The position numbers were made by a program, and so were the translations under genes. Source: an uncultured Chloroflexia bacterium (GTDB taxonomy: Bacteria > Chloroflexota > Limnocylindria > Limnocylindrales > CSP1-4). From it: DNA of 64,000 nucleotides. Below, one piece after another: positions 44,375 to 62,122 of the stretch (positions within the stretch are counted from its first letter, which is position 1; each line of letters opens with the position of its first letter). The notes beneath the pieces were generated by a model. That model saw only the letters and a program-made list of their open reading frames with translations. It was not told the DNA's origin and did no database searches. The stretch covers positions 864,001-928,000 of the forward strand of contig OY970218.1 of NCBI GenBank assembly GCA_963713975.1. The letters run 5' to 3'.

Positions 44375-44527
44375 GTGGCGAGTGTAGGCGATGGACCGGG
44401 CCCAGCCGGGTTCGCCGCGAGGCACGAGTCCGCGACCTGGCACCCGGGCGCTCCCGGACGCTCCCGGACGCCATACGCCGATCGTCCTAGCGTCATGCGC
44501 GTCGTGCCCGCGCTACCCTCGGCCCGT

Positions 44528-47337: not shown

Positions 47338-47357
47338 GCGACGGGCGGGAGGCGACG

Positions 47358-47648
47358 ATGGGGATCAGCGACCGGACGACCGCGGACCTGACGCTCTACG
47401 CGGAACCCGACGGCTCCGTGTCCGTCGACACGGGGGCGCGGTTCGTGGCCGTCGGCGGCGACGACCTCGAGCGCATCCTGGACCGCCTCGCCGCGGACGG
47501 CGGCACGCTGCGTCTGCTGGGTGGCACCGGCCGCGCGGACGACGGCGACGAGGCTCCGGAGCTCGAGAGCGATCCGGCGATGGGCGCGGCGGGCTGGGTG
47601 CTGGCCCTCGCCCATGAGCGCGGCCTCACGGTCATCCGCGAGGCGTAG
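47358..47648 (+). CDS. Small acidic hypothetical protein (96 aa)
   Basis: GGGAGG RBS before ATG 47358; fills the gap after tldE. Confidence 0.6.
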   Translation: MGISDRTTADLTLYAEPDGSVSVDTGARFVAVGGDDLERILDRLAADGGTLRLLGGTGRADDGDEAPELESDPAMGAAGWVLALAHERGLTVIREA

Positions 47649-47661
47649 CCGGGCGACGGCG

Positions 47662-47700
47662 CGTAACGGATCCGTAGCGGCGATCCATGACGCTGTGGTC
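47662..47700 (+). promoter_or_regulatory. Direct-repeat activator site plus weak -10, leaderless promoter (copy 1)
   Basis: CGTAACG(47662-68)-N4-CGTAGCG(47673-79)-N9-GACGCT(47689-94)-N6-ATG(47701). Confidence 0.65.
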
Positions 47701-49158
47701 ATGAAGCGTTCGACCGTTGCCATGTTCGTCCTCGCGATTGCCGCCGGAGCCTGCACCTCCCAGGCTCCGTCACCCTCGACTGCCGCCGCATCGCCTGCCC
47801 CGGCATCGCCCACGCCGGCGGCCTCCGGCAAACGCCCGGTCGTCTTCGACACCGACATGGGCATGGACGACCTGCTCGCGCTGTATGTCATCCTGCGCGA
47901 CCCGACGCTCGATGTTCGTGCGATCGCCATCGACGGCACCGGCCTCATCCACTGTGGCGCCGGTATCCGGAACATGCGCCGAATCCTCGGTGCGTTCGAC
48001 CGGCTCGATATCCCGTTCGGCTGCGGCCGCGAAGAGCCCGGACCGAACGGCCGGTCGTTCCCCAATGAGTGGCGCGCCACGAGCGATGCGATGTATGGCG
48101 TCGTCGTGCCACCGGTCGTGGCATCCGAGTTCCCGCCCGATGCGGTCACGATCCTCCATGACGCCCTCGCCGCCTCGGCGGACCCGGTGACGATCCTGGC
48201 GCTTGGCCCCTGGACGAACCTCCAGGACCTGTTCGTCGCAAACCCGGACACCATCGCGAAGGTCGCCGGCATTCACGCGATGGCCGGCACCATCGATGCC
48301 CCGGGCAACGTCGAGCTGGGCGGGACCACTGCGGCCAAAAAGGTCGAGTGGAACGTCGGCGCGGACCCCGATGCGTTTGCCGCCGTGATGGCGCTCGACG
48401 TGCCCGTGTCACTGGTGCCTCTCGATGCCACGAACGACGTCCCGACCCCGGCCGACATCGTCGAGACCCTGGACGCGGACCACGCCGCGGCGGGCGCGGA
48501 TCTCGCGTTCGAGACCTACGTCCGGAGCCCCTTCCTGCACGAGGCGGGCAACTACTGGTGGGACAGCGCCGCCGCCGTTGCCCTGACGAACCCGGAGCTT
48601 TTCACCTGGGAGGACGCGACGACCAGCGTCACGCTCGATGGACCTGCCACGGGCCGGATCAACCGCGATCCCGCGGGCCGGCCGACCCGGATCGCCGTCG
48701 GGGCTGACACGGCGCGCGTCACGGAGGCCGTCCTCGCGGGCCTCCGCCGCGGGGCGCCGCGCCCGGAGCCCTTCGCGACCATCGGCGCAATGCGGGTGGT
48801 GTTCGACGGGGCCACGTGCCGGCTCGAGGGCGAGCCCCCGACGAAGGCGGGCCTCGTGCGCATCGACTTCGCCAACCGGTCAAGCCTGCCGGCCGGCCTG
48901 CTGGCGGCCGGCGCCCGTCCTCCGAAGACGTGGGCCGACGCGCTCAACCTGATCGAGACCATCGAGCTCGACGATCCGGCCCTCGTGATCCCGGACTGGA
49001 TCGTCCAGGTGGACGGACCGGGCCCGTTCGCCGAGCCCGGCAAGGACGCGCTCGCCCTGGTCACGCTCCCGCCCGGGTCGCTGGGCGTGGCCTGCGCGAC
49101 CGGGCAATGGCCCGACCTCGCCTTCGTCGACGGCGGCTCGTTCACGCTCGCTGAGTAG
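47701..49158 (+). CDS. Nucleoside hydrolase (IUNH family) lipoprotein with an extra C-terminal domain
   Basis: Lipobox AGAC; FDTDMGMDD (DxDxxxDD), LGPWTNL, GNV, EWN..ADP, PLDAT and WWD motifs. Confidence 0.88.
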   Translation: MKRSTVAMFVLAIAAGACTSQAPSPSTAAASPAPASPTPAASGKRPVVFDTDMGMDDLLALYVILRDPTLDVRAIAIDGTGLIHCGAGIRNMRRILGAFDRLDIPFGCGREEPGPNGRSFPNEWRATSDAMYGVVVPPVVASEFPPDAVTILHDALAASADPVTILALGPWTNLQDLFVANPDTIAKVAGIHAMAGTIDAPGNVELGGTTAAKKVEWNVGADPDAFAAVMALDVPVSLVPLDATNDVPTPADIVETLDADHAAAGADLAFETYVRSPFLHEAGNYWWDSAAAVALTNPELFTWEDATTSVTLDGPATGRINRDPAGRPTRIAVGADTARVTEAVLAGLRRGAPRPEPFATIGAMRVVFDGATCRLEGEPPTKAGLVRIDFANRSSLPAGLLAAGARPPKTWADALNLIETIELDDPALVIPDWIVQVDGPGPFAEPGKDALALVTLPPGSLGVACATGQWPDLAFVDGGSFTLAE

Positions 49159-49166
49159 CGGTCCTC

Positions 49167-52007
49167 CTACCAGGACACCAGCTTCCAGATCTCGGGCTCC
49201 AGCTCGCCCGGGCGGCCACCGATCTCAGCGAACAGGCTCACCGCGTGCTTGAGGTGCTCCATCGCCTCCTCGTGCCGGCCGGCGGCCTGCAGCTGGTCGG
49301 CAAGGTTGTTCTCCACGGCCGCCTCGAGATGCAGCTCCCCGGTCCGGCGACATTCGGCCAACGCGTCCTCCAGGAGCCCGATGGCGGACTCCCGATCGCC
49401 CGCCGCCGCCTCGACCAGGGCGAGGGCATTGGAGGCCGCGATCGCGGCCCCGGGGTCACGGTCGTTGCCCGTCCCTGCGGTGTCGAGCGCCCGGCCCAGC
49501 TCGAGGCGCGCCGAATCCGGGTCGCCCCGCCGGAGTGCCACGAGGCCGGAGAGACGGCTGGCCGCTCCGATCGTCCGAAGGTCACGCGCGCTGTCGAGCG
49601 CCTCGGCCGCAAGCGCCGCGGCGAGACCGAGATCCCCGGCCCGGAGCGCGACCGTGCCGCGTTCCACCTGCGCCGCCGAGGCAACCTTCTCGTCGCCTCC
49701 GGCGATCGCCGCGTCGAGGTGGCTCGCCGCCGTCGCCACGTCGCCGCGGCGAGCGTGGACCCGGCCCAGTCGTAGCTCGATCTCCGGAAGCTGCGCCTCG
49801 GACACGACCGCGGCCGCCGCCTCCAGCGCCGTGGCCGCCGCCGCGTAGTCGCCCAGGGCCGTCCGAACCTCGGCGATGGCGACCTGCAGCCCGGCCACGT
49901 CCGGGTGGCCCAGGGCCAGCGCCGTCTCGAGGTGCCCGAGCGCCTCGCGGTTCGCGTGCACAGGTCGCGACGCCAGCCCCGCCTCGCGATATGCCTCCGC
50001 TGCCGCCGCGTCGCGACCCGCCGCATGCTCGTGACCGGCGATCTGGGCGAGACGCCCGGGGTCGTCCCGGCTCGTCGGGGCTGCGCGGAGGATCTCGGCG
50101 ACCCTCCGGTGGAGCAGGCGCCGGCGGGCAAGGCCCGTGTCGTCATACGCCGCGTCCCGGAGCCGCGCGTGGCTGAAGTCGAATGCCGATTCGCCGGCGC
50201 TCGCGACCTCGCGAACAACTCCTCGGCGCACGAGCTCCTCGAGTGCGGTCACCGTCTCGTCATCCGAGCGACCGCTCGCGGCGCGGACGGTCGTGAAGTC
50301 GAAGGAGCGGCCGATGACGGCAGCCGCAGCGAGCACCTGGGACGCGATCCCACCCACAGTCGACAGGCGCTCGTGAAGCAGCGCCCGCACGCCGCGCGGT
50401 GGTGCGTGGCGGTCGGCCCCCGGGCCCGCCAGGAGTGCCTCGACGACGTAGAGCGGAAGCCCCTCGGACTCCGCTGCAAGCGCCGCCGCATCCCAGGACG
50501 GCTGGCCCGCAGCAGCAGCCGACTCGACCAGCGCCCCGACCACGACATCGTCCAGCCGCTCCAGCCGTACCGACGTCGCTCCGGGCAGCCCCTGCACTGC
50601 ACTCGCAAGCGCCGTGGCTCCGCCCTCCATGTCCTCGGGACGCCACGTGAGGCACAGGAGCATCGGCCGGTCCGCAAGCCGCCGGGCGAGGTACAGCAGC
50701 GCCTCACGCGACGCATCATCCGCCCACTGCAGGTCCTCGAGCACCAAGATGCCCGGCACGGGCCCGCGGACGAGCGCCGTGAGGACGCTCGCGATTGCCT
50801 CGAGCAAGCGCGCGCGCGCGGCGGGCGAGTCCGACTGCCCGGCGGCAGCGACCCCGGCGGTGACGCCATCGGGCAGGGGCACAAGCCGCTCGACCTCCGC
50901 GAGGCCGGCCGTTGGGACATGGGCGAGACGCTCGGCGGCTCCCGACATCGCGAACCCTGCACGAAGCAGCTCCACGATCGGGCCGTAGGCGATTGACCCT
51001 TCGGCCGGGAATGCGCGCGCCTCAAGGGCCGCTGCCCCATCGGCGGCAGCGGCGGTGACAAGCGTCCCCACGAGGCGGGACTTGCCGATCCCGGCCTCGC
51101 CCGTGACCGAGGCGACACGACCGTCGGGCGACGACGAGAGGAACGCGGCACGGAGCGATGCCAGCTCCTGGCGCCGACCCATCATAGGCAGCCGTGCCGG
51201 CGCATCTGGATGGCCGGGGGGGGTCGCTTCGGCCGGCGGCGGCATCGACGGCGCCTCGAACCGCTCGTCCCGGATCGCCTCGTACAACTCCGTTGTCTCC
51301 GCGAGCGGCGCCACGCCGAGCTCCCGCTCCAGCACGGCCACGGTCGCGCGGTACTGGCGGATGGCGCCGGCGCGGTCGCCGCTGCCCGCCAGCGCGGTCA
51401 TCAGGCGGCGGCGCGCAGGCTCGTCGAGTGGGTCCAGCTCCACGAGCCGCATGACCGCGGACACGGCAGTCTCCGTGTCACCCGCGGCCCCTGCCGCCGT
51501 TGCCAGCCGGCCGAGGACGTCCACGATACGGCGCTCGATGGACACGGCCCGGGTAGCGCGCCAGTCATCGAAGTCCGGGCTGTCGCGGAGCGCGAAGCCG
51601 GCCAGGAACGGGCCGCGCGCAAGGTCCGCGGCGGTTGCGAGCACCACGGCGTCGGAGGTGTCGGCAGCGACGGCAGCCTCCAGGCCGGCGAGATCGAAGC
51701 TGACACCGTCGCCGGCCATCTCGAGGGCAACAGTGAAGCGATCCACCCGCAGCCACCGGTCGCCGAGCGCCGTCCGGAGGACCGACAACGTCCGGCGGAG
51801 CGCGCCGCGAGCCGACTCGTCGTCCGATTCCGGCCAGAACAACGCCGCGAGCTCGTCCCGCGCGTAGGGCCGTCCCTCCACCGCCAGCAGGGCAACGATG
51901 GCGAGCGCTTTCCTCGTGTCAACGTGGATCGGCTTGCGGTCGACCAGCACCTCGAGCGGGCCGAGGACGCGGACCTCAAGCATGGCGTCAGGGGACGACT
52001 GCGGCAT
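49167..52007 (-). CDS. SARP-type (wHTH-BTAD) STAND AAA-ATPase/TPR transcriptional regulator
   Basis: LEVRVLGPL, FWPE, GPFLAGF, DPLDE, ELGVAP; Walker A GEAGIGKS; Walker B LVLEDLQWAD; TPR-like C-terminus. ATG 52007 sits 8 nt after TACCGT. Confidence 0.92.
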   Translation of the reverse strand: MPQSSPDAMLEVRVLGPLEVLVDRKPIHVDTRKALAIVALLAVEGRPYARDELAALFWPESDDESARGALRRTLSVLRTALGDRWLRVDRFTVALEMAGDGVSFDLAGLEAAVAADTSDAVVLATAADLARGPFLAGFALRDSPDFDDWRATRAVSIERRIVDVLGRLATAAGAAGDTETAVSAVMRLVELDPLDEPARRRLMTALAGSGDRAGAIRQYRATVAVLERELGVAPLAETTELYEAIRDERFEAPSMPPPAEATPPGHPDAPARLPMMGRRQELASLRAAFLSSSPDGRVASVTGEAGIGKSRLVGTLVTAAAADGAAALEARAFPAEGSIAYGPIVELLRAGFAMSGAAERLAHVPTAGLAEVERLVPLPDGVTAGVAAAGQSDSPAARARLLEAIASVLTALVRGPVPGILVLEDLQWADDASREALLYLARRLADRPMLLCLTWRPEDMEGGATALASAVQGLPGATSVRLERLDDVVVGALVESAAAAGQPSWDAAALAAESEGLPLYVVEALLAGPGADRHAPPRGVRALLHERLSTVGGIASQVLAAAAVIGRSFDFTTVRAASGRSDDETVTALEELVRRGVVREVASAGESAFDFSHARLRDAAYDDTGLARRRLLHRRVAEILRAAPTSRDDPGRLAQIAGHEHAAGRDAAAAEAYREAGLASRPVHANREALGHLETALALGHPDVAGLQVAIAEVRTALGDYAAAATALEAAAAVVSEAQLPEIELRLGRVHARRGDVATAASHLDAAIAGGDEKVASAAQVERGTVALRAGDLGLAAALAAEALDSARDLRTIGAASRLSGLVALRRGDPDSARLELGRALDTAGTGNDRDPGAAIAASNALALVEAAAGDRESAIGLLEDALAECRRTGELHLEAAVENNLADQLQAAGRHEEAMEHLKHAVSLFAEIGGRPGELEPEIWKLVSW

Positions 52008-52011
52008 GGCG

Positions 52012-52081
52012 CGTAACGGTACAACTTCGGCGCGCAATGTCGTAACGTTCTGCGAACGGCGTCTCCGCATCATCCGGTGCC
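52012..52081 (+). promoter_or_regulatory. Divergent promoter region with direct-repeat site (copy 2) and an extra half-site over the regulator's own -10
   Basis: CGTAACG(52041-47)-N4-GCGAACG(52052-58)-N9-CATCAT(52068-73)-N8-ATG(52082); a lone CGTAACG at 52012-18. Confidence 0.65.
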
Positions 52082-53257
52082 ATGACCGCGTCCCGCGTTC
52101 GACCGGCCCTCGTCGCCTGGCTGCTCGCCATCCTCGTGATCGCGCTGAGCGGCTGGGTGCTGTTGCCGTTCCCGCGCCCTCCCACGGGCTGGGAGGAGGT
52201 CGCGTGGATCATTGGGTTCGGCGTCGGGTTCACGACCATTGGCGCGCTCCTCGTCGATCGTCGTCCCCACGAACCGGTCTCCCGGATCACGCTTGGCATC
52301 GGCTTGATCGTCGTCGCGGCGGTTGGGCTGCGGGCGCTGGCCGTGGCGCTCGATGCGCGGCCCGGAGACCTGCCGGCAGCCGGAGCGCTGGCAGCCGCCC
52401 TGTCCGCGGTGCTCCAGGCCATCGCGTTCCTCGCATCGGGCAGCTTTCTGCTGGTCCGTTTCCCAAACGGGCGCGAGCGCGGCCGCCTGTCAGCTTCGGT
52501 TGATGCGCTGGTCGTGCTGATCGGGACTGCGGCAGTGCTCAACGTATTCGCCCCAGGCCGGATCGCCGTGGACTACCTGTCCCCGACGGAGAACCCGATC
52601 GGCATCGAGCGGCTCGATCCCGCGCTGTTCAAGGCGATCGGGACCCTCGCCCTCGCCGCCTACGCCGTGAGCCTGGTGCTCGCGGTCGTCGTCGTCGCTC
52701 GCCGCTACCGGCGTTCCGACCCGGTCGCCCGTGCCCAGATTCGATGGGTCGCGGCGGCGGGCCTCCTGCCCGTGGTGCTCGCGCCGCTCATCTTCACGTC
52801 CGAGTGGATGTGGACGGTCTGGCTCCTCTCGACCGCCCTGCTGCCCGTTGCGATCGGCATTTCGATCCTGCGCTACCACCTGTTCGACATCGACCGGATC
52901 GTCAGCCGCTCGCTCGCGTACGCGATCGTGACCGCCGTCCTGGCCGTGACGTTCCTCGGCACGAACCTCGTCCTCCAGGCGCTGATCGCGGACACCCTCG
53001 CGGCCGGCACGTTCGCGGTCGCCGCGTCCACGCTCGTGGTGGCGGCGCTGTTCCAGCCTGTGCGGGGCCGGGTCCAGGCGCTGCTGGACCGACGGTTCAA
53101 CCGGCGTCGGGTCGACGGCGACCGTATCGCCCGCGCGTTTGCCACCGGTCTCCGCGACCGCGTCGACCTCGACGAGGTCCGGGCGGCGATGCTCGCCGCG
53201 GCGGACGAGGCCGTCGCCCCCGCGTCGCACGGCCTGTGGATCCGGAGCGCCGGATGA
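52082..53257 (+). CDS. Multi-TM sensor-type membrane protein 1, ending in an N-terminal GAF fragment
   Basis: About 9 TMs; FPNGR, ENPIG, RAQIRW, ILRYHLFDID, FQPVR..LDRRFNR and LRDRVDL..AVAPASHGLWIR-stop. Confidence 0.85.
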   Translation: MTASRVRPALVAWLLAILVIALSGWVLLPFPRPPTGWEEVAWIIGFGVGFTTIGALLVDRRPHEPVSRITLGIGLIVVAAVGLRALAVALDARPGDLPAAGALAAALSAVLQAIAFLASGSFLLVRFPNGRERGRLSASVDALVVLIGTAAVLNVFAPGRIAVDYLSPTENPIGIERLDPALFKAIGTLALAAYAVSLVLAVVVVARRYRRSDPVARAQIRWVAAAGLLPVVLAPLIFTSEWMWTVWLLSTALLPVAIGISILRYHLFDIDRIVSRSLAYAIVTAVLAVTFLGTNLVLQALIADTLAAGTFAVAASTLVVAALFQPVRGRVQALLDRRFNRRRVDGDRIARAFATGLRDRVDLDEVRAAMLAAADEAVAPASHGLWIRSAG

Positions 53258-54408
53258 TGCCGCGTGGCCTGACGCTCGTGCTCGCGTCGATCTCGCTGCT
53301 CACGCTCGGCGCCAGCGTGGTCCTGTTCGCCGCCGTCGATTACGCGAGCGCCGAGCTACTCATCTTCACGCCATCGGTCGCGGCCTTCGTCGTCATCGGT
53401 GCGTTCGTGCTGCAACGGCAGCCGTCGAGCGTCGTCGGCGTGCTGCTGCTCGTGTTCGGCGTGGGCGGGAGCGTCATCTACCCGCTGGCTGCCATCGGCG
53501 CGGCGCCAGCCGGCACGCCCTCGGCGGACGTCGCCGGCGCCTTCGTCCAGGCACTGGACCCGATGACCTACGCGACCGTCTCGCTCCTCCTGCTCGTGTT
53601 CCCCGATGGCCGTCTGCCATCGGCGCGCTGGCGACCCCTCGTCGCGATGGTCGCGGTCGGGTTCGCCCTCAGCGTGGTGGGCAACCTGACGACGCCGGGG
53701 GCGCTGCTCGTCTTCCCGCAGCATGAGAACCCCGTCGGGGTGGCGTCGCCGGTGCTCACCGCCGCGGGAGCGGTCGGGTACATCCTCGCGACCGTCTCGA
53801 TGCTCGCTGCCGCGGCCTCGCTCGTCGTCCGCTGGCGGCGCGGCTCGGCCCTCGAGCGGGCGCAACTCAAGTGGATCGCCGCGTCGGGGCTGCTCCTGGC
53901 GTTCGTCTCGGCCCTGTACTTGATCTCGTTCTTCCTATGGGCGGTCGCGCTCCTCCCGCTCGTCGCGTCCTCGATCTCGTTCACGCTGTTCCCGGCGACG
54001 GTCGCGATCGCGGTCCTCCGCTACCGGCTGTTCGAGATCGACCGGATCTTGAGCCGGACGATCGGATGGGCGATCGTGACCGGACTCCTGCTGGCCGTGT
54101 TCGCGGGTGCCGTCGTCGGGCTGCAGGCCGTCCTTGCGCCGGTGACGGCGAACAACACCCTTGCGGTCGCCGCGTCCACGCTCGTCGCGGCGGCGCTGTT
54201 CCAGCCGCTGCGCGCCCGTGTCCAGCACGGCGTCGACCGCCGCTTCAACCGGTCCCGGGTTGACGCGGACCGGGCGGTGGCAAGGTTCGTGGACCACGCC
54301 CGGAACGAGGTTGACCTGGCCCGGCTCAGAGCGGCCCTCGTCGCCACCGCCGATGACGCCGTCCATCCGTCCGACGGGGCAGTCTGGCTCCGGGGGGTCG
54401 CTCAATGA
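53254..54408 (+). CDS. Multi-TM sensor-type membrane protein 2 (paralogue)
   Basis: ATGA overlap; FPDGRLPSARW, ENPVG, RAQLKW, LRYRLFEID and ARNEVDL..AVHPSDGAVWLR-stop. Confidence 0.85.
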   Translation: MMPRGLTLVLASISLLTLGASVVLFAAVDYASAELLIFTPSVAAFVVIGAFVLQRQPSSVVGVLLLVFGVGGSVIYPLAAIGAAPAGTPSADVAGAFVQALDPMTYATVSLLLLVFPDGRLPSARWRPLVAMVAVGFALSVVGNLTTPGALLVFPQHENPVGVASPVLTAAGAVGYILATVSMLAAAASLVVRWRRGSALERAQLKWIAASGLLLAFVSALYLISFFLWAVALLPLVASSISFTLFPATVAIAVLRYRLFEIDRILSRTIGWAIVTGLLLAVFAGAVVGLQAVLAPVTANNTLAVAASTLVAAALFQPLRARVQHGVDRRFNRSRVDADRAVARFVDHARNEVDLARLRAALVATADDAVHPSDGAVWLRGVAQ

Positions 54409-55646
54409 ATGCACGTCCGACCCCGACCAGGACCCACGTCGCGAGGCCTGGGCTCCGGCTGCTCATAGTCGTGGTGATCGCGATCTCGGTGGTGGCCACG
54501 GTCTCACAGCTCGTGACGGAGCCACGCACGCGGATCAACAGCGTCCTGTTCCTGGTGGCGACCCTGAGCTACCTGGGCGTTGGGCTGGTGCTCGCGGAGC
54601 GCCGGCGCGGCAATCTCGTCGGCGCCCTGGTCCTGCTCCTCGGCGTGTTCTTCGCGAGCTACGTCACGATCGATGCCTACCTTCGCCAGGCGGACCGTCC
54701 CGAAGGCGCCGTTGCGGTGAGCCTTGCGTTGGGCGTGAGCCTCATCGACGGACCCATGTTCTTCGCCGTCGCGATGCTGTTCCTGGTGTTTCCGGACGGA
54801 CGCCTTCCGTCATCGAGATGGCGTGCGCTCGTCGTCGCCTCTGGGGTGTTCGCAAGCCTCACGTTCCTCGGGGCACTCCTCCGGCCGGGCGCGTTCCTGT
54901 TCTACACCTGGTTCGATAACCCGCTCGATCCTCCGCCGAACCTCCTCACCGACACCTGGGATCCGATGTACGGGCTCACGGTGGGCTGCGTCGTGCTGGC
55001 TGCGTTGTCCCTGGTCAGCAGATGGCGACGCGCCGGCGCCGTCGAACGTGCCCAGCTCAAGTGGGTGGCAGCCGCGGCATCGCTCGTCGGGCTTGCCATG
55101 GTGACCTATGGGCTCGGTGCCGGACCTACCAACTACTCAGACGTCGGTGACATGACCGTCGGCGCGGCCTTCTCCCTGTTCCCGATCGCAATTGGCATTG
55201 CCGTGCTCCGCTATCGCCTGTTCGAGATCGACCGGCTCATCAGCAGGACGCTGGGCTGGGCGATCGTGACGGCGATCCTGGTGGCGTCGTTCGCGGCGAT
55301 TGTCGTCGGCCTCCAGGCGGTGCTGAGCGGCGTCACCCAGGGGGAGACGCTTGCCGTCGCGGCCTCCACGCTTGTTGCCTTCGCGCTCGTCCAGCCGCTC
55401 CATCGCCGCATCCAGCGGACCGTCGATCACAGGTTCAACCGGTCGCGCGTGAATGCCGAACGCACGATCGCCGCGTTCGGCGAGCGGCTGCGCGACGAGG
55501 TTGACCTGGCTGCGATCAGCGCCCAGGTCCCGGCGACTGCCGACGCGGCGGTGCAGCCATCCAGCGTCGGTCTCTGGCTGCGCCGCGGGACGGCTGGCGA
55601 TCTCGTAACGATGTCCGAACGCCCGAGCACGAGCATGCGCACATGA
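54405..55646 (+). CDS. Multi-TM sensor-type membrane protein 3 (paralogue)
   Basis: ATGA overlap; FPDGRLPSSRW, DNPL, RAQLKW, LRYRLFEID and LRDEVDL..AVQPSSVGLWLR plus a short tail. Confidence 0.85.
   Translation: MNARPTPTRTHVARPGLRLLIVVVIAISVVATVSQLVTEPRTRINSVLFLVATLSYLGVGLVLAERRRGNLVGALVLLLGVFFASYVTIDAYLRQADRPEGAVAVSLALGVSLIDGPMFFAVAMLFLVFPDGRLPSSRWRALVVASGVFASLTFLGALLRPGAFLFYTWFDNPLDPPPNLLTDTWDPMYGLTVGCVVLAALSLVSRWRRAGAVERAQLKWVAAAASLVGLAMVTYGLGAGPTNYSDVGDMTVGAAFSLFPIAIGIAVLRYRLFEIDRLISRTLGWAIVTAILVASFAAIVVGLQAVLSGVTQGETLAVAASTLVAFALVQPLHRRIQRTVDHRFNRSRVNAERTIAAFGERLRDEVDLAAISAQVPATADAAVQPSSVGLWLRRGTAGDLVTMSERPSTSMRT
55604..55642 (+). promoter_or_regulatory. Direct-repeat site plus weak -10 inside the sensor-3 coding tail (copy 3)
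   Basis: CGTAACG(55604-10)-N4-CCGAACG(55615-21)-N9-GAGCAT(55631-36)-N6-ATG(55643). Confidence 0.65.
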
Positions 55647-57304
55647 CAGCAATCAGCCGTCCGTTTCGCCGCCTGATCGGCCGTCCTGTGGCCGAGGCCG
55701 TGGCCGCCCCGGTGCCGTCCGCGGCCGCCACGGTGGAGCAGCCCGGCGTGGCGATCGACATCCCCGAGACGGACCCCCTGTTCGCCTACCTCCAGGCCGC
55801 GCCGGGCCCCGTCGACCTGACGAGGCTCGAGCTCGGCTCAGCGGCCCTCGACCACCTCCGTGAAGCCGGCGTCGCGCTCGTCGTGCCGCTGGTGACCCAG
55901 GGCGAGCTGATCGGGACCCTGAACCTCGGGCCGCGCCTGTCCGAGCAGGACTACTCCACCGACGATCGCCGTCTCCTGGCCACCCTCGCCGCTCAGGCGG
56001 CGCCCGCGATCCGCGTCGCCCAGCTGGTCCGCGAGCAGGCAGCCGAGGCCGCCGAGCGCGAGCGATACGAGCAGGAGCTCAAGGTCGCCCAGCTCATCCA
56101 GCAGCAGTTCCTGCCGCGCGAGCTGCCGAACCTGCGCGAATGGCAGATCGCCGCGTACTACGGCCCGGCGCGGGTCGTCGGCGGGGACTTCTACGACTTC
56201 ATCGACCTCGGGGAGGGGCGCATCGGCGTCGTCGTCGGCGACGTCACCGACAAGGGCGTCCCAGCTGCCCTCGTCATGGCCCGCACCCACTCGATCCTCC
56301 GGGCCGAGGCCCCGCGGCTCATCGAGCCCGGCAAGGTGCTCGCCCGCGCCAACGAGCTGCTCACGCCGGAGATGCCCGCCCGGATGTTCGTCACCTGTCT
56401 CTACGGCGTGCTCGAGCCCGAGAGCGGCCGCTTCACCTTCGCAAACGCCGGCCACAACCTGCCGTACCTCAGGACCGCGGATGGCGTCATCGAGCTGCGG
56501 GCGACCGGCCTGCCGCTGGGCCTGATGCCCGGGATCGTCTACGAGGAGACAGACAGCGTCATCGGCCAGGGCGACGCGATGCTGCTCTACTCCGACGGGC
56601 TTGTGGAGCAGCACGGTCCCGGTCGCGAGATGTACGGCTTCCCGCGCCTGCGTGAGGCGATGGCCACCGACGACGCCGGGAGCGTGCTCCTCGACCGCCT
56701 GCTCGATGAGCTGCATGCCTTCACCGGGTCGGCTTGGGAGCAGGAGGACGACATCACGCTCGTCACCCTCCGCCGCTCGGCGGGCGTGGCCGACATGTTC
56801 GCCGCAGACGGCCCGGGCGTGCCCCTCACCCGAGACGATGCCGCCGCCGAGGAGTTCCCCCAGGATGCCGAGCCGCTCATCGCATTCACGGTCGAGGGCG
56901 CCATCGGCAACGAGCGGGGTGCGATGCAGCGGGTTGCCGACGCGGTCGCCCCGCTGGGCCTCGAGCCCGCGCGACTCGAGCGCCTCAAGACCGCGGTCGC
57001 CGAGACTGTGATGAACGCCATCGAGTACGGCTCGCAAGGCAGTCCCGACGTTCCGGTCGACGTCCGGGTCGACGTCGACGACGCGGCCATCCGCGTCCGC
57101 GTGACCGACCGCGCGCTCTCGGGTCCCGTCCCGGACGCCGAGATGCCGGATCTGGACGCGAAGCTCGAGGGTCGCCAGAAGCCCAGGGGCTGGGGCCTGT
57201 TCCTCATCCGCCACATGGTCGACGGCATGGATGTGCACGCCGAGGACGGCCTCCAGACCGTGACCCTCACCATCGCCCGAACCCCCCAAGGAGGTGCGTC
57301 GTGA
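55643..57304 (+). CDS. C-terminal GAF fragment - SpoIIE/RsbU PP2C phosphatase - RsbW-like HATPase fusion
   Basis: LVVPLVTQGELIGTLNLG..YSTDDRRLLATLAAQ; PP2C motifs GGDFYD, GDVTDKG, NAGH, YSDG, DDIT; kinase motifs AETVMNAIEYG, VTDR, RGWGLFLI. Confidence 0.92.
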   Translation: MTAISRPFRRLIGRPVAEAVAAPVPSAAATVEQPGVAIDIPETDPLFAYLQAAPGPVDLTRLELGSAALDHLREAGVALVVPLVTQGELIGTLNLGPRLSEQDYSTDDRRLLATLAAQAAPAIRVAQLVREQAAEAAERERYEQELKVAQLIQQQFLPRELPNLREWQIAAYYGPARVVGGDFYDFIDLGEGRIGVVVGDVTDKGVPAALVMARTHSILRAEAPRLIEPGKVLARANELLTPEMPARMFVTCLYGVLEPESGRFTFANAGHNLPYLRTADGVIELRATGLPLGLMPGIVYEETDSVIGQGDAMLLYSDGLVEQHGPGREMYGFPRLREAMATDDAGSVLLDRLLDELHAFTGSAWEQEDDITLVTLRRSAGVADMFAADGPGVPLTRDDAAAEEFPQDAEPLIAFTVEGAIGNERGAMQRVADAVAPLGLEPARLERLKTAVAETVMNAIEYGSQGSPDVPVDVRVDVDDAAIRVRVTDRALSGPVPDAEMPDLDAKLEGRQKPRGWGLFLIRHMVDGMDVHAEDGLQTVTLTIARTPQGGAS

Positions 57305-57660
57305 CCGACCGCCTGTCCATCGAGATCATCACCGCCATCCCCGGCGAGGCCCGCCTGGCGATGCGTGGAGATGTCGACGTCGCCGCGGACGAAGTCCTCT
57401 CCGCGGCATACACGGAGGCCGCGGCCGCCGGCGCAACCCGCGTGGTCCTCGACTTCGGCAATGTCGACTACATCAACTCGACCGGCATCGCGCTCATCGT
57501 CCGGCTCCTGGCGGAAGCGCGTCGCGACCACCGCGAGGTGATCGCGCTCGGGCTGTCCGAGCACTACCGGGAGATCTTCCGGATCACGCGCCTGTCCGAC
57601 TACCTCACGATCGCCGACGGCCTGCCGGCGACGCCCGTCCCCGAGGAGGCAGCCCGATGA
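57301..57660 (+). CDS. STAS domain anti-anti-sigma-type protein 1
   Basis: GTGA overlap; GDVD, LDFGNVDYINSTGIALI (phospho-Ser position) and FRITRL. Confidence 0.9.
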   Translation: MTDRLSIEIITAIPGEARLAMRGDVDVAADEVLSAAYTEAAAAGATRVVLDFGNVDYINSTGIALIVRLLAEARRDHREVIALGLSEHYREIFRITRLSDYLTIADGLPATPVPEEAAR

Positions 57661-57998
57661 CCGACACCACCGTGGACGAGACCCGGGATGGATCGACCGC
57701 GATCCTGCGGATCCATGGCGAGATCACCGGGGGCAGCGAGCCTCCGATCATGGCGGCCTACGCCGAGGCCGGCGACGCCCGATCGATCGTCCTGGACTTC
57801 AGCGATCTCGACTACATGAACAGCGGTGGGATCGGCCTGCTGGTCACCTTGCTGGTCCGTGCGCAGCGCGCCGGTCAGAAGCTCCTGGCGATCGGTCTGA
57901 GCGACCACTACAAGCAAATCCTCGCCCTCACCCGCCTCGACGAGGCGATCGCGATCCACGACGACGAGACCGCCGCGCTGGCCGCTGCGTCCGCCTGA
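57657..57998 (+). CDS. STAS domain anti-anti-sigma-type protein 2
   Basis: ATGA overlap; GEIT, LDFSDLDYMNSGGIGLL and LTRLD. Confidence 0.9.
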   Translation: MTDTTVDETRDGSTAILRIHGEITGGSEPPIMAAYAEAGDARSIVLDFSDLDYMNSGGIGLLVTLLVRAQRAGQKLLAIGLSDHYKQILALTRLDEAIAIHDDETAALAAASA

Positions 57999-58047
57999 TC
58001 TCCGCGGCCCGCCAGGGCCTGCGCCCCATCGAGAACGGAGAACCGCG

Positions 58048-58791
58048 ATGACCACTCCTGATCCCCGCGCGCCCCGTGACCAGGAATCCTGGGCCCGGCC
58101 CGTCGACCGCCTGACCACCACCGCCACCGGCGCCGGCTCCGACACCGTCACCGGCAAGCGCGTCGCCGGCCCCGTCCAGGGCTTCGGCCAGATGTGGCAG
58201 AAGACGTTCGCGATCCGCGTGCCCGGCGATGAGCACTCGCCCGAGGAGGTGATCTCGCACTGGAAGGAGAGGTTCCCGACGTTCTGGCCGAAGGGCGCGA
58301 CGTTCTACGCGCCGCTCGCCGGTATCTCGCCGGGCGAGGTCGCGCTGCTCGAGATCCCGCCCGTGCCGGGTTCCCCGGTCAAGATGTCCACCGGCGTGAT
58401 GGTGATCTACGCTGACCGCGAGTCGTTCACCTTCATGACCCCGGAAGGGCACGCGCTGGCCGCATGGATCACCTTCTCCGCATACCGGGACGGCGACGAG
58501 ACCGTCGCCCAGGCACAGGCGCTCGAGCGCACCAGCGATCCGCTGATCGAACTGACCTATATCTTCGGCGCGAACCGGTCGAACGACGCGTTCTGGGAGA
58601 AGACGCTGGCCAACCTCGCACGGTCGCTCGGCGTCACGTCGCCGGTCGTCGAGACCACGAAGGTCTGCGTCGACAAGCGACGCCAGTGGAAGCACGCGGG
58701 CAACGTGCGGCACTCGCCGGCGGTGCACATGACGGTGTCCACGATCACGGCGCCGGCGCGCTGGGTCCGGCGTCGGAGGACGACGAGCTGA
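58048..58791 (+). CDS. Conserved-looking hypothetical protein (possible DUF1990/START-like fold)
   Basis: GGAGA RBS; GPVQGFGQMWQKT, TGVMVIYAD..SFTFMTPEGH..AWITFS; last gene of the signalling operon. Confidence 0.75.
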   Translation: MTTPDPRAPRDQESWARPVDRLTTTATGAGSDTVTGKRVAGPVQGFGQMWQKTFAIRVPGDEHSPEEVISHWKERFPTFWPKGATFYAPLAGISPGEVALLEIPPVPGSPVKMSTGVMVIYADRESFTFMTPEGHALAAWITFSAYRDGDETVAQAQALERTSDPLIELTYIFGANRSNDAFWEKTLANLARSLGVTSPVVETTKVCVDKRRQWKHAGNVRHSPAVHMTVSTITAPARWVRRRRTTS

Positions 58792-58822
58792 CCTCGCGGT
58801 GGCGCCGATCGGGCCCTCGTCC

Positions 58823-60247
58823 ATGAGCTCGCTCGACGCGATCGTCGTCGGGGCAGGACCCAACGGCCTCGCGGCCGCCATCGAGCTGGCGCGTGCCGGC
58901 CGGTCGGTCCGGGTCTACGAGGCTTCGGACACGATCGGCGGCGGCACGCGCTCGGCCGAGGTGACGCTGCCGGGGTTCATCCACGACGTCTGTGCCTCGG
59001 TCCACCCGTTGAGCCTGGCATCGCCGTTCCTCCGGTCGCTGGACCTGGAGCGACACGGGCTGGAATGGGTGCACCCCGACGCGCCGGTCGCACACGCCCT
59101 CGCGCCCGGTCGCAGCGTCGTGCTGGAGCGGGATCTCGCGGCGGTCGACGACGCGCTCGAGCGTGATGCGGACGCCTGGCGGCGTCTCTACGGCCCGTAC
59201 GTCCGCGAGTGGAAGCAACTCGTGCCGGCGATCCTGTCGCCGGTCGTCCGGCCCCCTCGGCACCCGATCCTCATGGCACGGTTCGGGCTCCCGGCGCTCC
59301 TCCCCGCGACGTCGCTCGCACGGCTGGCGTTCGCTGAGCCGGCTGCGCGGGCGTTGTTCGCGGGCATGGCCGCCCACTCGATGCTCCGCCTGGGACAGCC
59401 GATGAGCGCGTCCTTCGGCCTGGTCCTGGGCCTGCTCGCCCATGCCGTCGGCTGGCCGATCGCGAGGGGTGGCAGCGGTGCGATCGCCGCAGCGCTCGAG
59501 GCGGAGGCTCGATCCCTTGGCGTGGAGCTCGTGACCGGCCACCGCGTCGATGCCGTCGCAGACCTTCCCCGCGCGGGCGCGTACGTGCTCGACGTGACAC
59601 CCCGCCAGGTCCTGGCCATGGCCGGCGACCGGCTGCCCGCGGGCTATCGCCGCCAGCTCGAGGGCTTCCGCTACGGCCCCGGGGTGTTCAAGGTCGACTG
59701 GGCGCTGGACGGACCGATCCCGTGGGCCGATCCCGCAACGGCCCGTGCCGGGACGGTCCACCTCGGTGGCACCTACCGGGAGATCGCGGCCTCCGAGGAG
59801 GCCGTCGGCCGCGGCAGACACGCGGATCGGCCGTACGTCCTGCTCGTCCAGCCCACGATCGCGGACCGCTCGCGGGCCCCGCAGGGCAAGCACGTGGCGT
59901 GGGCGTACTGCCACGTTCCCAACGGCTCGACGGAGGACATGACCGGCACCATCGAGGCGCAGATCGAGCGGTTCGCACCGGGCTTCCGGGATCTCGTCCT
60001 CGCCCGCGCCACCAAGGACTCGGTCGCAATGGAGGCGTGGGACGCCAACTACGTTGGCGGCGACATCAACGGCGGCATCGGGGACTGGCGCCAGCTGCTG
60101 TTCCGCCCGGTCGTCCGCTGGAACCCTTACACGACGCCAGACCCGGCGATCTTCCTGTGCTCGTCCTCCACGCCACCCGGCGGTGGTGTCCATGGCATGA
60201 GCGGACACCATGCCGCACGCGCGGTGATCGCACGGCGGTATCGTTGA
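58823..60247 (+). CDS. NAD(P)/FAD-dependent oxidoreductase (phytoene dehydrogenase-like)
   Basis: VGAGPNGLAAA, HDVCASVHP, WAYCHVP and STPPGGGVHGM motifs. Confidence 0.9.
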   Translation: MSSLDAIVVGAGPNGLAAAIELARAGRSVRVYEASDTIGGGTRSAEVTLPGFIHDVCASVHPLSLASPFLRSLDLERHGLEWVHPDAPVAHALAPGRSVVLERDLAAVDDALERDADAWRRLYGPYVREWKQLVPAILSPVVRPPRHPILMARFGLPALLPATSLARLAFAEPAARALFAGMAAHSMLRLGQPMSASFGLVLGLLAHAVGWPIARGGSGAIAAALEAEARSLGVELVTGHRVDAVADLPRAGAYVLDVTPRQVLAMAGDRLPAGYRRQLEGFRYGPGVFKVDWALDGPIPWADPATARAGTVHLGGTYREIAASEEAVGRGRHADRPYVLLVQPTIADRSRAPQGKHVAWAYCHVPNGSTEDMTGTIEAQIERFAPGFRDLVLARATKDSVAMEAWDANYVGGDINGGIGDWRQLLFRPVVRWNPYTTPDPAIFLCSSSTPPGGGVHGMSGHHAARAVIARRYR

Positions 60248-60251
60248 GCCA

Positions 60252-60938
60252 ATGGACGACGGGCGCGCGACGGCGACGGCCAGGAAAGCGCGCCGTGCCA
60301 CGCCCCCGAAGGGCTGGCAGTTCTCGCGTCCGGCGATCGTCGCGCGTGAGATCACGGCCCGCCTCATCGGCCCGTTCATCGGCTGGTTTCTGGTGGGGCC
60401 GCGGGTCGTGGGCCGGGAGCACCTCGCCTCCCTGGGGGGTCCGTCCCTGATCTGTCCCAGCCATGCGAGCCATTTCGACTTCTCGGCGCTCCGCCTGGCC
60501 CTCGGCCCCAGGCATCGGCAGCGTCTGACCGCGGCGGCCGCGGCCGACTACTTCGCCACGAAACGCTCCCGCTGGTTCGTCGCCGCCTGGCTCGGCGCGT
60601 TCGCCTTCAACCGGACGGGACGCGGTGCCGATTCGATCGCTGCCGCGGAGGGTCTGCTGCAGGCCGGCTGGCACGTCGTCCTGTTCCCGGAGGGGACGCG
60701 GACCGTGACCGGCGAGATCAACCCGTTCCAACCGGGCATCGGGCTGCTGGCGAGGCACACGGGATGCCAGGTGCTGCCGGTCCGGATCATCGGGATCCGT
60801 GGCGTGCTGCCCAAGGGCGCGCAGAGGCCGAGGCGGTCGCCCGTGGAGGTGCGCTTCGGTGCCCCGCTCCGCGCGCTGCCGGGCGAGGACGCCCGTGCGT
60901 TCACCGCCCGCCTGGAGGCGGCCGTCCGCGCGTTGTGA
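60252..60938 (+). CDS. Lysophospholipid acyltransferase (PlsC family)
   Basis: SHASHFD (HX4D), AAADYF and LFPEGTR motifs. Confidence 0.9.
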   Translation: MDDGRATATARKARRATPPKGWQFSRPAIVAREITARLIGPFIGWFLVGPRVVGREHLASLGGPSLICPSHASHFDFSALRLALGPRHRQRLTAAAAADYFATKRSRWFVAAWLGAFAFNRTGRGADSIAAAEGLLQAGWHVVLFPEGTRTVTGEINPFQPGIGLLARHTGCQVLPVRIIGIRGVLPKGAQRPRRSPVEVRFGAPLRALPGEDARAFTARLEAAVRAL

Positions 60939-60948
60939 CGGAGCATGG

Positions 60949-60983
60949 TTGACGTCTACCCTTGACTGGGTACACTTCTACCC
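60949..60983 (+). promoter_or_regulatory. vapBC promoter and operator
   Basis: TTGACG(60949-54)-N16-TACACT(60971-76)-N7-ATG; inverted repeat GTCTACCC/GGGTACAC (60954-60975) plus a third TTCTACCC. Confidence 0.7.
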
Positions 60984-61250
60984 ATGGGCCTCAACATCAA
61001 GAACGAGGAGACCATCCGGCTGGTGCGCGAGCTGGCGGACGAGCTCCATGTGTCCATGACCGCTGCGATCACGGTGGCAGTCCGGGCGCGCCTCGAGCAG
61101 CTCCGCGAACGGGAGGCTGACGAAGACCTGGCGGCCGACTTCGAGCGCGGACTGGCGATCCTGCGTGAGATGCGCGAACTGATGGGCGAGGAGTACTTGA
61201 GCCAGGACTTCGATGCGCTGCTCTACGACGAGGCAGGGCTGCCGAAATGA
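60984..61250 (+). CDS. vapB: VapB antitoxin (Rv0623/VapB30-like)
   Basis: MGLNIKNEE..LVRELA..SMTAAI..A and C-terminal LYDEAGLPK. Confidence 0.92.
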   Translation: MGLNIKNEETIRLVRELADELHVSMTAAITVAVRARLEQLREREADEDLAADFERGLAILREMRELMGEEYLSQDFDALLYDEAGLPK

Positions 61251-61720
61251 TCATCGACTCATCGGTGCTCGTCGCCACCATGCTGCGCGAGCCGGACGCC
61301 CAGGCGTTCGCGAGGGCGATCCGGGCGGCCGAGAGCCGCCGCATCTCCGCTGCGAGCTACGTCGAGCTGTGCGCTGTGATCGACGGCCGTCGAGACCCCG
61401 TCCTCTCGAGCGGGATCGACCAGGTGCTTCTCGCGTGGCACATCGAGATCGTGCCGTTCACCCCGCAGCAGGCGCGACTCGCCCGGGAGGCCCACCAGCG
61501 GTTCGGGCGCGGCTCAGGGCACCCGGCGCGGCTCAACATGGGCGACTGCTACTCGTACGCGCTGGCACGGGACCTCGGCGAGCCGCTCCTGTTCAAGGGC
61601 AGTGACTTCGCGCTGACCGATATCGAGCTGATCGTGGAGCCCGTGAAGAGCCGGCGCCTGAGCGAGATCGTCGCGGCGTACGCATCCATGTCGGAGGCGG
61701 CGCCGACACTGCAGCCCTAA
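61247..61720 (+). CDS. vapC: VapC PIN-domain toxin (VapC30-like)
   Basis: MIIDSS, FGRGSGHPARLNMGDCYSYALA and LLFKGSDFALTD; ATGA overlap. Confidence 0.95.
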   Translation: MIIDSSVLVATMLREPDAQAFARAIRAAESRRISAASYVELCAVIDGRRDPVLSSGIDQVLLAWHIEIVPFTPQQARLAREAHQRFGRGSGHPARLNMGDCYSYALARDLGEPLLFKGSDFALTDIELIVEPVKSRRLSEIVAAYASMSEAAPTLQP

Positions 61721-61726
61721 GCCTCG

Positions 61727-62086
61727 TCAGCCGCCCGACACGCAGAACTCGTTGCCCTCCGGGTCCGCCATCACGGTCCAGCGGACGCCCTCACCCATGG
61801 CGCGCTCCGCGATGAACGTCGCGCCGAGTGCCGTCAGCCGCTCGACCTCCGCGTCCATCGAGTCGCCCCGCAGGTCCAGGTGGACGCGGTTCTTGACGGT
61901 CTTGGCCTCGGGAACCTTCTGGAACAGGAGGGCCGGCCGCCCGATCGCGCGCTCCGCCGGTGCAATCGCCACGTACTGCTCGTTCACGTCGTGGCGGACG
62001 TAGTCCCCGAGGGCCGCGAGCCAGAAGGCGACGACGACCTCGTGATCCGCACAGTCGATGACGATCTCGCCGAGCTTTAGGGTCAT
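61727..62086 (-). CDS. VOC (glyoxalase-like) family protein
   Basis: IVIDCAD, FW..ALG, KNRVHLDL and MADPEGNEFC; GGAGG RBS. Confidence 0.9.
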   Translation of the reverse strand: MTLKLGEIVIDCADHEVVVAFWLAALGDYVRHDVNEQYVAIAPAERAIGRPALLFQKVPEAKTVKNRVHLDLRGDSMDAEVERLTALGATFIAERAMGEGVRWTVMADPEGNEFCVSGG

Positions 62087-62122
62087 CGTGTGACCTCCTC
62101 CATGTCCAGGCACCGGCGCGCG

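Follow-up and report, generated by a model that had tools for sequence, protein, structure and literature searches.

In Bacillus subtilis, several alternative sensors (the RsbR paralogues of the stressosome) feed one PP2C phosphatase in the stressosome-RsbT-RsbU-RsbV-RsbW pathway, where the rest of the switch is made up of STAS antagonists and an RsbW-type kinase. In excerpts from work on RsbU-type phosphatases, binding of a partner to the N-terminal domain orders the linker into a crossing coiled coil, which dimerises and activates the phosphatase, and AlphaFold2 (AF2) dimer models of GAF-, PAS- and receiver-linked PPM phosphatases, including Rv1364c, follow the same linker plan (PMC12143880). 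Here we describe a locus from an uncultured Chloroflexia bacterium that lies in a stretch of 64,000 nucleotides (assembly GCA_963713975.1, contig OY970218.1, positions 864,001 to 928,000 of the forward strand). This whole stretch is called the window, and all coordinates below are positions within it. The locus encodes three membrane proteins, regarded as sensors (S1, S2 and S3), followed by a single output protein with phosphatase and kinase domains (OUT). Comparison with fused relatives shows that the sensor tail and the N-terminal domain of OUT correspond, by homology, to two parts of one GAF domain, apparently separated by gene fission.

The system consists of six consecutive genes:

52082-53257, + strand: S1, sensor, open reading frame (ORF) of 391 amino acids (aa)
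53254-54408, + strand: S2, sensor, ORF of 384 aa
54405-55646, + strand: S3, sensor, ORF of 413 aa
55643-57304, + strand: OUT, ORF of 553 aa
57301-57660, + strand: STAS1, anti-sigma-factor antagonist (STAS_2, STAS and TIGR00377 matches)
57657-57998, + strand: STAS2, anti-sigma-factor antagonist (TIGR00377 match)

The first-pass annotation, which a model had made from the letters of this DNA, described the genes from 52082 to 57998 as chained by 4-nt overlaps, and this is indeed the case at all five junctions from S1 to STAS2 (four ATGA and one GTGA). It also credited OUT with a promoter motif of its own, which could not be upheld: a sigma-70 consensus scan of 51800-58300 found no promoter-like site (0 found vs 0.3 expected), and a consensus scan of the same region found no terminator on the + strand. 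Because the overlaps run throughout and no promoter-like site or terminator was seen inside, S1-S2-S3-OUT-STAS1-STAS2 can be read as one translationally coupled operon. It should be noted that the S2 ORF is enclosed by a longer stop-to-stop frame of 554 aa. G+C content around the S1-STAS2 region is 0.67-0.75, the window belongs to a 3.62-Mb single-contig genome, and the closest protein relatives are named Candidatus Limnocylindrales, Chloroflexota.

The sensors had been characterised as tandem paralogous proteins with about nine transmembrane (TM) segments. Their paralogy is clear (S2 and S3 are 38% and 34% identical to S1), whereas the number of segments had to be revised, a crude hydropathy count giving about ten per sensor. 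The same count suggests an N-in, C-in topology: the N-terminus and the even-numbered loops are basic, and the C-terminus is therefore placed in the cytoplasm. S1 and S3 have only sub-threshold matches to the Pfam family HisKA_7TM (PF16927; 17.1 and 21.3 bits, respectively, vs a cut-off of 28.6), S2 has no Pfam match, and none of the three has an NCBIfam match. In agreement with the earlier description, no enzymatic output domain was detected in S1-S3 by Pfam and NCBIfam scans. Since the sensors stay below threshold while a fused relative, L089, reaches 67.7 bits, the relationship to HisKA_7TM appears to be distant. Among 113 sensors from the window and related loci, residues 1-260 are variable save for three loop motifs, and residues 261-360 are the most conserved, a pattern that fits a common transmitting part attached to diverse sensing parts.

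S1-S3 all end in a common tail of ~75 aa, which comprises the end of the last TM segment, the motif QPLRRRVQxxVDRRFNRxRVDAxR and the motif LRDEVDL...AVxP...LW(L/I)R. The tail motif ends 3, 4 and 20 aa before the stop codon in S1, S2 and S3, respectively, so that the common end point noticed at first sight is real. The three tails are located as follows:

53030-53254, + strand: S1 tail (last 75 aa), N-terminal GAF piece by homology to fused orthologues
54181-54405, + strand: S2 tail, N-terminal GAF piece by homology to fused orthologues
55368-55592, + strand: S3 tail, N-terminal GAF piece, with 20 aa after LWLR and then the stop

In S1, the end of the last TM segment is followed within the tail by two helices, the first of them juxtamembrane, and by one beta-strand (..LWIR). 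Three residues (F23, R25 and W70) are invariant in a profile alignment of 143 tails. Isolated tails match no Pfam family at E<=10 (three of three tails), and when compared with PDB sequences they find no GAF, only chance matches at E>=1. Thus, the GAF nature of the tail can be demonstrated only via fused relatives.

For OUT, it had been proposed that the protein begins with the remainder of a GAF domain and continues with PP2C and HATPase domains, and domain searches returned this arrangement. The order of its parts is N-terminal peptide, variable linker, C-terminal GAF piece, coiled-coil linker, PP2C (SpoIIE) domain and HATPase_c_2 domain:

55643-55684, + strand: N-terminal basic peptide, OUT residues 1-14, MTAISRPFRRLIGR, conserved in orthologues
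55685-55747, + strand: Ala/Pro-rich linker, OUT residues 15-35, variable in length and sequence and disordered in the model
55748-56047, + strand: C-terminal GAF piece, OUT residues 36-135 (Pfam, AF2, Foldseek and hhalign)
55958-56110, + strand: long helix, OUT residues 106-156, the last GAF helix running on as the PP2C linker (AF2)
56213-56776, + strand: PP2C/SpoIIE phosphatase domain, OUT residues 191-378 (PF07228)
56921-57271, + strand: HATPase_c_2 domain, OUT residues 427-543 (PF13581), RsbW/SpoIIAB-like serine kinase

The GAF matches of OUT score above the cut-offs (GAF, 33.3 bits vs 22.4; GAF_2, 34.3 vs 28.6; GAF_3, 33.3 vs 27), and what is covered is the C-terminal portion of each model: positions 55/56-133 of 133 in PF01590, 39/41-127 of 129 in PF13492 and 84/85-135 of 136 in PF13185. 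Full coverage of a GAF model within one polypeptide was not found for OUT. Likewise, in a search of PDB sequences, OUT residues 80-131 align with residues 99-150 of the 153-residue DevS GAF. The PF07228 match is nearly complete (166.3 bits, E 1e-48, model positions 2-191 of 192), and D182, D185, D200, D203, D318, D369 and D370, which we take to be PP2C metal ligands, are invariant in 56 OUT orthologues. The kinase domain matches PF13581 with 73.5 bits (cut-off 27.4); its NCBIfam scores (24.8 and 23.5 bits for RsbW and 31.8 for SpoIIAB) stay far below the equivalog level, for which the cut-offs are 135-155.

Fused full-length homologues, the search for which had been recommended, do exist, and they comprise a close and a distant group. 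The close orthologues L096-L099, found in three genomes (G138, G156 and G174), carry tail, half-GAF and PP2C in one frame, with E-values of 1e-13 to 1e-17 for the tail profile and 5e-36 to 7e-57 for the OUT profile. L096 has 817 aa, L097 has 558 aa from its ATG, and L099, with 1050 aa, contains the full membrane part, tail, GAF, PP2C and HATPase_c_2. The L097 ORF is identical to a protein (P0272) named 'PP2C family protein-serine/threonine phosphatase [Ktedonobacteraceae bacterium]' at NCBI. In all four close orthologues, PF01590 spans the region from the tail-like end through the OUT-like half (model positions 1/2/8 to 130-133). A search with the tail and GAF region of L097 yielded 636 proteins at E<=1e-3 among 8000 candidates; the best 120 of the 636 all span 96-100% of this region, and some of those 120 are named Ktedonobacteraceae 'GAF domain-containing SpoIIE family protein phosphatase'. 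In hhalign comparisons with the fused family, the tail profile (143 sequences) falls on columns 177-255 (probability 98.6%, E 1.1e-15) and OUT residues 37-188 fall on columns 262-413 (probability 100%, E 9.9e-47). The two stretches are adjacent and do not overlap, which is also seen in an alignment of eight sequences, where the break site corresponds to a loop of 14 to ~55 aa in the fused proteins. The tail W is invariant in the fused family too. Profile comparison, suggested as a check on both fragments, thereby assigns each of them a place in the fused family, and the proposal that the tails represent the first helices and the first strand of a GAF domain gains its support via the fused orthologues, in which PF01590 starts inside the tail-like segment.

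The distant group was found through weak matches of the tail profile (E 1e-5 to 1e-12) within long ORFs in a sample of 401 Chloroflexota genomes, which was searched with both the tail profile and the OUT half-GAF profile. These proteins (L089-L095) contain a related membrane domain, a tail-like segment and a complete GAF, and then HisKA/HATPase_c, HD-GYP or HisKA_3. For example, L089 has, besides its HisKA_7TM domain, a tail-like segment at residues 282-351 and a GAF at 327-463 that covers model positions 2-131, and L090 (a kinase) and L095 (an HD-GYP protein) are arranged in the same way. The junction of tail and GAF may be common to several kinase classes. L094 (G258:C1, ORF 6771-4255, minus strand), a HisKA_3 kinase of 839 aa, carries PDZ domains towards its N-terminus, and its tail-like segment, ..NRWMYGERDDPYAVLSRL.., runs into a short GAF.

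One candidate fusion was rejected. P0001 (781 aa), the sole protein among 1085 candidates in a search for longer carriers of the S3 tail, was judged not to be a true fusion, as the sequence between its tail and half-GAF reads as frameshifted noise. About 12 of the best 150 tail-profile representatives run >30 aa beyond the tail (hand count), and in five of the six such proteins that were read (P0262, P0228, P0194, P0268 and P0255), the sequence past the tail is Arg/Pro/Gly-rich with no GAF-like motif. P0124 consists of two sensors in one frame, and P0219 stops 8 aa past its tail. P0001, P0262 and P0228 look like frameshifted or over-extended predictions in high-GC contigs, and such predictions can mimic fused forms.

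How regularly the split form occurs was assessed in the best 80 of 156 OUT relatives on contigs from one genome per species (63-91% identity), which are referred to as related loci. A near-complete tail ORF is present on OUT's strand within the flanks of all 80 loci; 75 of them have one to seven tails upstream of OUT, and the other five have tails only downstream. Most of the near-complete tails (288 of 294) end <=29 aa from a stop, and the remaining six run on for 42-797 aa in stop-to-stop frames, as in L013, where three tail matches share one frame. The distance between the last sensor and OUT ranges from -20 to 1317 nt. A clean OUT ORF could be cut for 55 of the 80 loci (21 failed the N-terminal match filter and four the length filter). 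In these 55 orthologues, the start codon occupies the aligned position (ATG in 54, GTG in one), and the proteins open with M-T-x-x-T-R-P-x-R-R-L-x-G-R; between this peptide and the invariant half-GAF lies a linker whose length varies. In an unrooted quick tree of the region from the GAF half to PP2C, built from 28 of 56 split sequences and 24 fused ones (four genomic and 20 from the proteins of the L097 search), all split forms fall on one side of a branch with a Shimodaira-Hasegawa-like approximate likelihood ratio (SH-aLRT) support of 100, which fits one fission event.

Within this context, it is very hard to believe that a frameshift, an assembly error or a recent pseudogenisation simply broke one fused gene. 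P0001 does look like a frameshifted read-through of such a locus, and the six tails that run on would be expected from errors of this kind. However, the break recurs in three genes of the window and, among 80 species-level relatives, in 288 of 294 tails, the start codon and the N-terminal peptide of OUT are conserved, the distance between sensor and OUT varies widely, and the split OUT proteins occupy one side of a well-supported branch in the unrooted tree. The recurrence of the break, from which the first-pass annotation had argued against a one-off frameshift, is thus seen far beyond the window.

With genes for a PP2C phosphatase, for STAS antagonists and for a serine kinase encoded together, the locus has the core composition of a partner-switching system of the RsbU/RsbV/RsbW type. 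STAS1 matches STAS_2 (45.8 bits), STAS (42.9 bits) and TIGR00377 (56.8 bits, cut-off 53.45), and STAS2 matches TIGR00377 with 54.2 bits against the same cut-off; the pair lies downstream of OUT in 72 of the 80 related loci. Their N-S-T-G and N-S-G-G motifs contain a Ser in what is presumably the phosphorylated position, and the two proteins are likely substrates. The operon is best explained as a partner switch whose input GAF domain has been split by gene fission. The N-terminal GAF piece (juxtamembrane helix, second helix and first strand) is carried at the cytoplasmic end of several paralogous ~10-TM sensors, and the C-terminal piece (the remaining helices and strands and the last helix) opens the single soluble OUT protein. 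Docking of a tail, a form of fragment complementation, would bring OUT to the membrane, and the state of the completed GAF would pass via the helical linker of ~50 residues, setting the dimerisation of PP2C and its activity toward phospho-STAS. By analogy with RsbU-type phosphatases, as far as the excerpts cited above describe them, we infer a corresponding role for the linker helix of OUT. The HATPase_c_2 domain would phosphorylate STAS1 and STAS2, and the 4-nt overlaps could favour assembly of OUT with the sensor translated just before it. As the tail is common to the sensors and their first ~260 residues are variable, different receptors would feed one output. It is reasonable to assume, with somewhat better than even confidence, that the sensor tails dock on OUT by completing the GAF fold; this is the best reading because the homology and co-occurrence data give it its prior.

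Structure models are consistent with this idea. In the AF2 model of OUT residues 1-190, the predicted local distance difference test (pLDDT) score exceeds 90 for most of residues 40-150, and residues 1-33 are disordered. The elements are helix 45-52, a strand of two residues (57-58), helix 67-74, strands 79-85 and 88-95 and helix 106-156. A Foldseek comparison of OUT alone with solved structures returned only GAF domains (best E 3.4e-3, template-modelling score TMt 0.34-0.44, 66-102 columns) and no match at E<=1e-3. Since only two long strands are present and the match to solved GAFs is weak, the GAF of OUT appears incomplete, and the expectation that its N-terminus is not a complete GAF on its own was borne out. 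The fused region of L097, modelled by AF2 from a 96-row alignment, reached a mean pLDDT of 74.6 and a predicted template-modelling score (pTM) of 0.64, with two of the five models >70 and three at 44-51. In this model, helices 3-47 and 53-68 and strand 73-77 form the tail part, and after a low-confidence loop the elements of OUT follow. The fused model has 47 Foldseek matches at E<=1e-3 (best 1.6e-6), with TMt of 0.57-0.70 on single-domain GAF targets of 153-178 residues.

The complex prediction that had been recommended was carried out for the S3 tail and OUT residues 1-150, using alignments of 143 and 56 rows, respectively. It scored 0.50 (runs 0.50, 0.53 and 0.49) compared with 0.00 for the best of three controls, contacts agreed by >=77% between runs, partner pLDDT was >=54, and the outcome was graded 'weak support'. 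The mark was reached in calibration by 58 of 80 solved complexes and by 2 of 110 mismatched pairs; only seven of the 80 solved complexes lie at <=0.60, together with both passing mismatches, and the calibration is a rough guide here, where own alignments were used. The check thus favours docking weakly.

The N-terminal peptide of OUT (residues 1-14) has no counterpart in fused proteins and is disordered in the AF2 model. Possible roles are those of a second docking element and of a membrane anchor, and the peptide may also be just a relic. It was also considered as the missing second GAF strand and rejected: the tail strand of the fused proteins loops straight to the segment equivalent to OUT residue 37, and the fused AF2 model has no strand there. 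The peptide (..RPFRRLIGR) loosely resembles the juxtamembrane QPLRRRVQ of the sensors (~55389-55420 and paralogous positions), and MAFFT aligned the two. This likeness may be due to chance between basic peptides, or the peptide may be what remained after a fused ancestor underwent an internal deletion.

Further support comes from the distribution of the two parts among the 401 genomes. Strong tails (E<=1e-20) occur in 28 genomes from nine families and the OUT half-GAF (E<=1e-19) in 29, and 26 genomes have both; one genome counted in both the 28 and the 26 (G344) is flagged as unpublished, and without it the counts are 27 and 25. Four genomes (G145, G173, G227 and G272) count only in the overall tallies (118/401 and 104/401). 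The two strong-tail genomes without OUT at this threshold are G052, in which OUT is cut by the contig end beside its three sensors, and G345. The three OUT genomes without strong tails are those with the fused forms, so that OUT never occurs without a tail, in trans or in cis, among the 401 genomes. In the genus of the window, the genomes G079, G301 and G349 (94-97% complete) have neither a tail nor an OUT match, and in its family strong tails occur in 2 of 23 other genomes, both with OUT. Such a patchy pattern suggests that the whole set was lost or transferred.

The number of sensors differs considerably between genomes. The genome of the window has just the three tails described and one OUT-type protein. 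In five genomes scored in full, 14, 15, 14, 10 and six tails were found at E<=1e-10, with one strong OUT match each. Indeed, 13 sensors stand in tandem on one contig of G082 (G082:C176:481-15404), and 11 stand in tandem directly upstream of OUT in G073 (G073:C52:229551-242841). A count of sensors against outputs, proposed as a further check, therefore gave many sensors per OUT, up to ~15:1, with OUT in 26 of 28 sensor genomes. Many sensors (up to 15 or more per genome) with the same GAF 'plug' might compete for one PP2C-kinase 'socket', the completing sensor selecting the input; we consider the chances of this to be about equal either way. The tail family as a whole comprises 10,551 clusters (50% identity) at E<=1e-3 and 7,500 at E<=1e-10. 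The tail is C-terminal in about nine of ten of the best 150 representatives (hand count), and the source records name tail-ended proteins 'hypothetical protein'. A few records suggest that the clusters are commonest in Actinomycetota, which is a lead and not a result.

Nonetheless, several points weigh against docking by completion of the GAF fold. The OUT half folds with high confidence alone in AF2, and a self-sufficient truncated domain or a domain-swapped OUT dimer would be compatible with this model. OUT residues 1-36 (conserved peptide and variable linker) are without a counterpart in the fused proteins according to hhalign, and they could be the real docking element. The GAF scores of the close fused orthologues are marginal (PF01590, 21.4-23.9 bits vs a cut-off of 22.4), two of the four lying just under the gathering score. 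Most predictions in the 'weak support' class are wrong, unless the pairing was already likely on other grounds, and no interface was reported. As regards co-occurrence, the 'strong' thresholds were set after the bimodal E-values had been seen, and kin genomes are not independent. In G345 (91% complete), two strong sensors but no OUT match were found, and the single-contig genome G165 has OUT at 0.21 Mb and its six sensors at 0.75-3.70 Mb, none of them linked to OUT. Finally, no sigma factor or other target was found among the scanned flank ORFs of the window (43188-49155 and 58048-63895), a genome-wide search not having been made.

Some of these points would be explained if sensors and OUT cooperated without GAF completion, i.e., if the N-terminal peptide, the kinase or the phosphatase domain of OUT bound the sensors or the membrane, and the tail and the half-GAF were self-folding or dimerising remnants. 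The conservation of OUT residues 1-14 in 55 orthologues and their absence from fused proteins, the loose likeness of the peptide to QPLRRRVQ, and the confident model of the OUT half alone would all agree with such an arrangement, and co-occurrence fits any kind of coupling. However, the second helix and the strand of the tail stay conserved and share their invariant W and P spacing with fused GAFs, and a three-element remnant retained in thousands of clusters needs a function; the complex prediction of the tail with OUT 1-150 (0.50 vs 0.00) also lends weak support to contact between the two halves. We therefore consider cooperation of this kind unlikely.

It is somewhat less likely still that there is no physical coupling at all, in which case the tail-ended proteins would act alone, the degenerate truncated GAF of OUT would serve only dimerisation, and adjacency would reflect shared fused ancestry. 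Sensors are often unlinked to OUT (all six in G165 and many in G361 and G129), those of G345 are without a detected OUT, and sensors as such have no recognised output or family, as this explanation would predict. Yet tail and OUT co-occur in 26-27 of 28 genomes from nine families, OUT is never tail-less, and both were lost in three other genomes of the window's genus. Moreover, the genes of the window are translationally coupled through their 4-nt overlaps, and synteny is kept in 80 of 80 loci. Docking by fold completion remains the account that we prefer.

The genes that flank the operon include three conserved neighbours:

49167-52073, - strand: BTAD-AAA_16-TPR regulator, divergent (Pfam), with a homologue in 63 of the 80 related loci
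58048-58791, + strand: 247-aa protein without a Pfam family at E<=0.01, directly after the STAS pair
58799-60247, + strand: FAD-dependent amine-oxidase/phytoene-desaturase-like oxidoreductase, conserved in 72 of the 80 related loci

The regulator is a conserved neighbour, and its membership of the system is not implied. A homologue of the 247-aa protein is encoded <=1.5 kb downstream of OUT in 75 of the 80 related loci, and this protein may be part of the system or its target. Other flanking genes, at 44375-47337 (+), 47521-49158 (+), 61247-61720 (+) and 62123-63898 (-), encode a TldD/PmbA pair, a nucleoside hydrolase, a PIN-domain protein and an ATPase with R3H and phosphotyrosine-phosphatase-like domains. 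No link between these flanking genes and the signalling system was seen.

If docking by fold completion is true, the locus would represent natural signalling by domain completion, in which the interface between sensor and effector is the hydrophobic core of a single fold and sensors are exchangeable via a common fragment. Such many-to-one modular wiring would be undescribed for bacterial signalling and may extend to thousands of tail-ended orphans in other lineages. It would explain a very large set of unannotated tail-ended membrane proteins and provide a model of how the polytopic sensors of the tail family signal to cytoplasmic outputs. It would also offer protein engineering a GAF split site tested by evolution, and it would illustrate how gene fission turns a one-sensor protein into a many-sensor network, for which the fused orthologues are a built-in control. 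In the full-text literature searched, which leaves most subscription journals outside, neither a GAF nor any other sensor domain of bacterial signalling was found described as naturally split; there, 'split GAF' refers to psychiatric scales and 'naturally split' to inteins. The first-pass remark that no description of such a system was known agrees with that literature.

Among known proteins, the closest are the fused tail-GAF-PP2C proteins of other Chloroflexota, which have the same tail motif, half-GAF, linker helix and PP2C as the system described here, with a GAF half that is 46-50% identical to that of OUT; L096 and L099 also carry HATPase_c_2, like OUT. They differ in being a single polypeptide, with a loop of 14-55 aa at the break site of the window and no counterpart of OUT 1-36, and those of the Ktedonobacteraceae type have a shorter membrane part and mostly lack a kinase domain. 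HisKA_7TM-GAF kinases and their HD-GYP and HisKA_3 relatives (L089-L095) share with S1-S3 a polytopic membrane domain with an RYRL..D motif, followed by a tail-like juxtamembrane segment, which in these proteins leads into a complete GAF. However, they are distant (tail profile E 1e-5 to 1e-12), and their outputs (HisKA/HATPase_c, HD-GYP or HisKA_3) are fused in cis.

Completion of a fold in trans has precedents of other kinds. In engineered split GAF/phytochrome reporters, the fold is completed by a segment of another polypeptide, although these are man-made, and in chaperone-usher pili, donor-strand complementation completes a fold in trans, although for structural assembly and not for signalling. 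To our knowledge, neither involves many alternative donors per acceptor in a regulatory pathway.

As a switch, the locus resembles the RsbT-RsbU pair, in which, according to the excerpts of PMC12143880, a partner on the N-terminal domain of the phosphatase orders a helical linker, much as the tail is proposed to act on OUT. The difference from B. subtilis is that RsbU binds its partner via a complete N-terminal domain, whereas in the window a portion of the sensor domain of the phosphatase itself would come from the partner. In addition, the sensors are integral membrane proteins, the phosphatase and the kinase are fused, and no sigma factor is encoded nearby in the scanned flank ORFs. Mycobacterium tuberculosis Rv1364c (PAS-PP2C-RsbW-like-STAS), as presented in the same excerpts (PMC12143880), resembles OUT in combining PP2C and an anti-sigma-type kinase in one polypeptide, downstream of a sensor domain of the small-molecule type, but it has a complete PAS in cis, a fused STAS and no membrane partners. 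We rate the system of the window as one of known domains and a known type of switch, in which the way of joining sensor to effector would be new.

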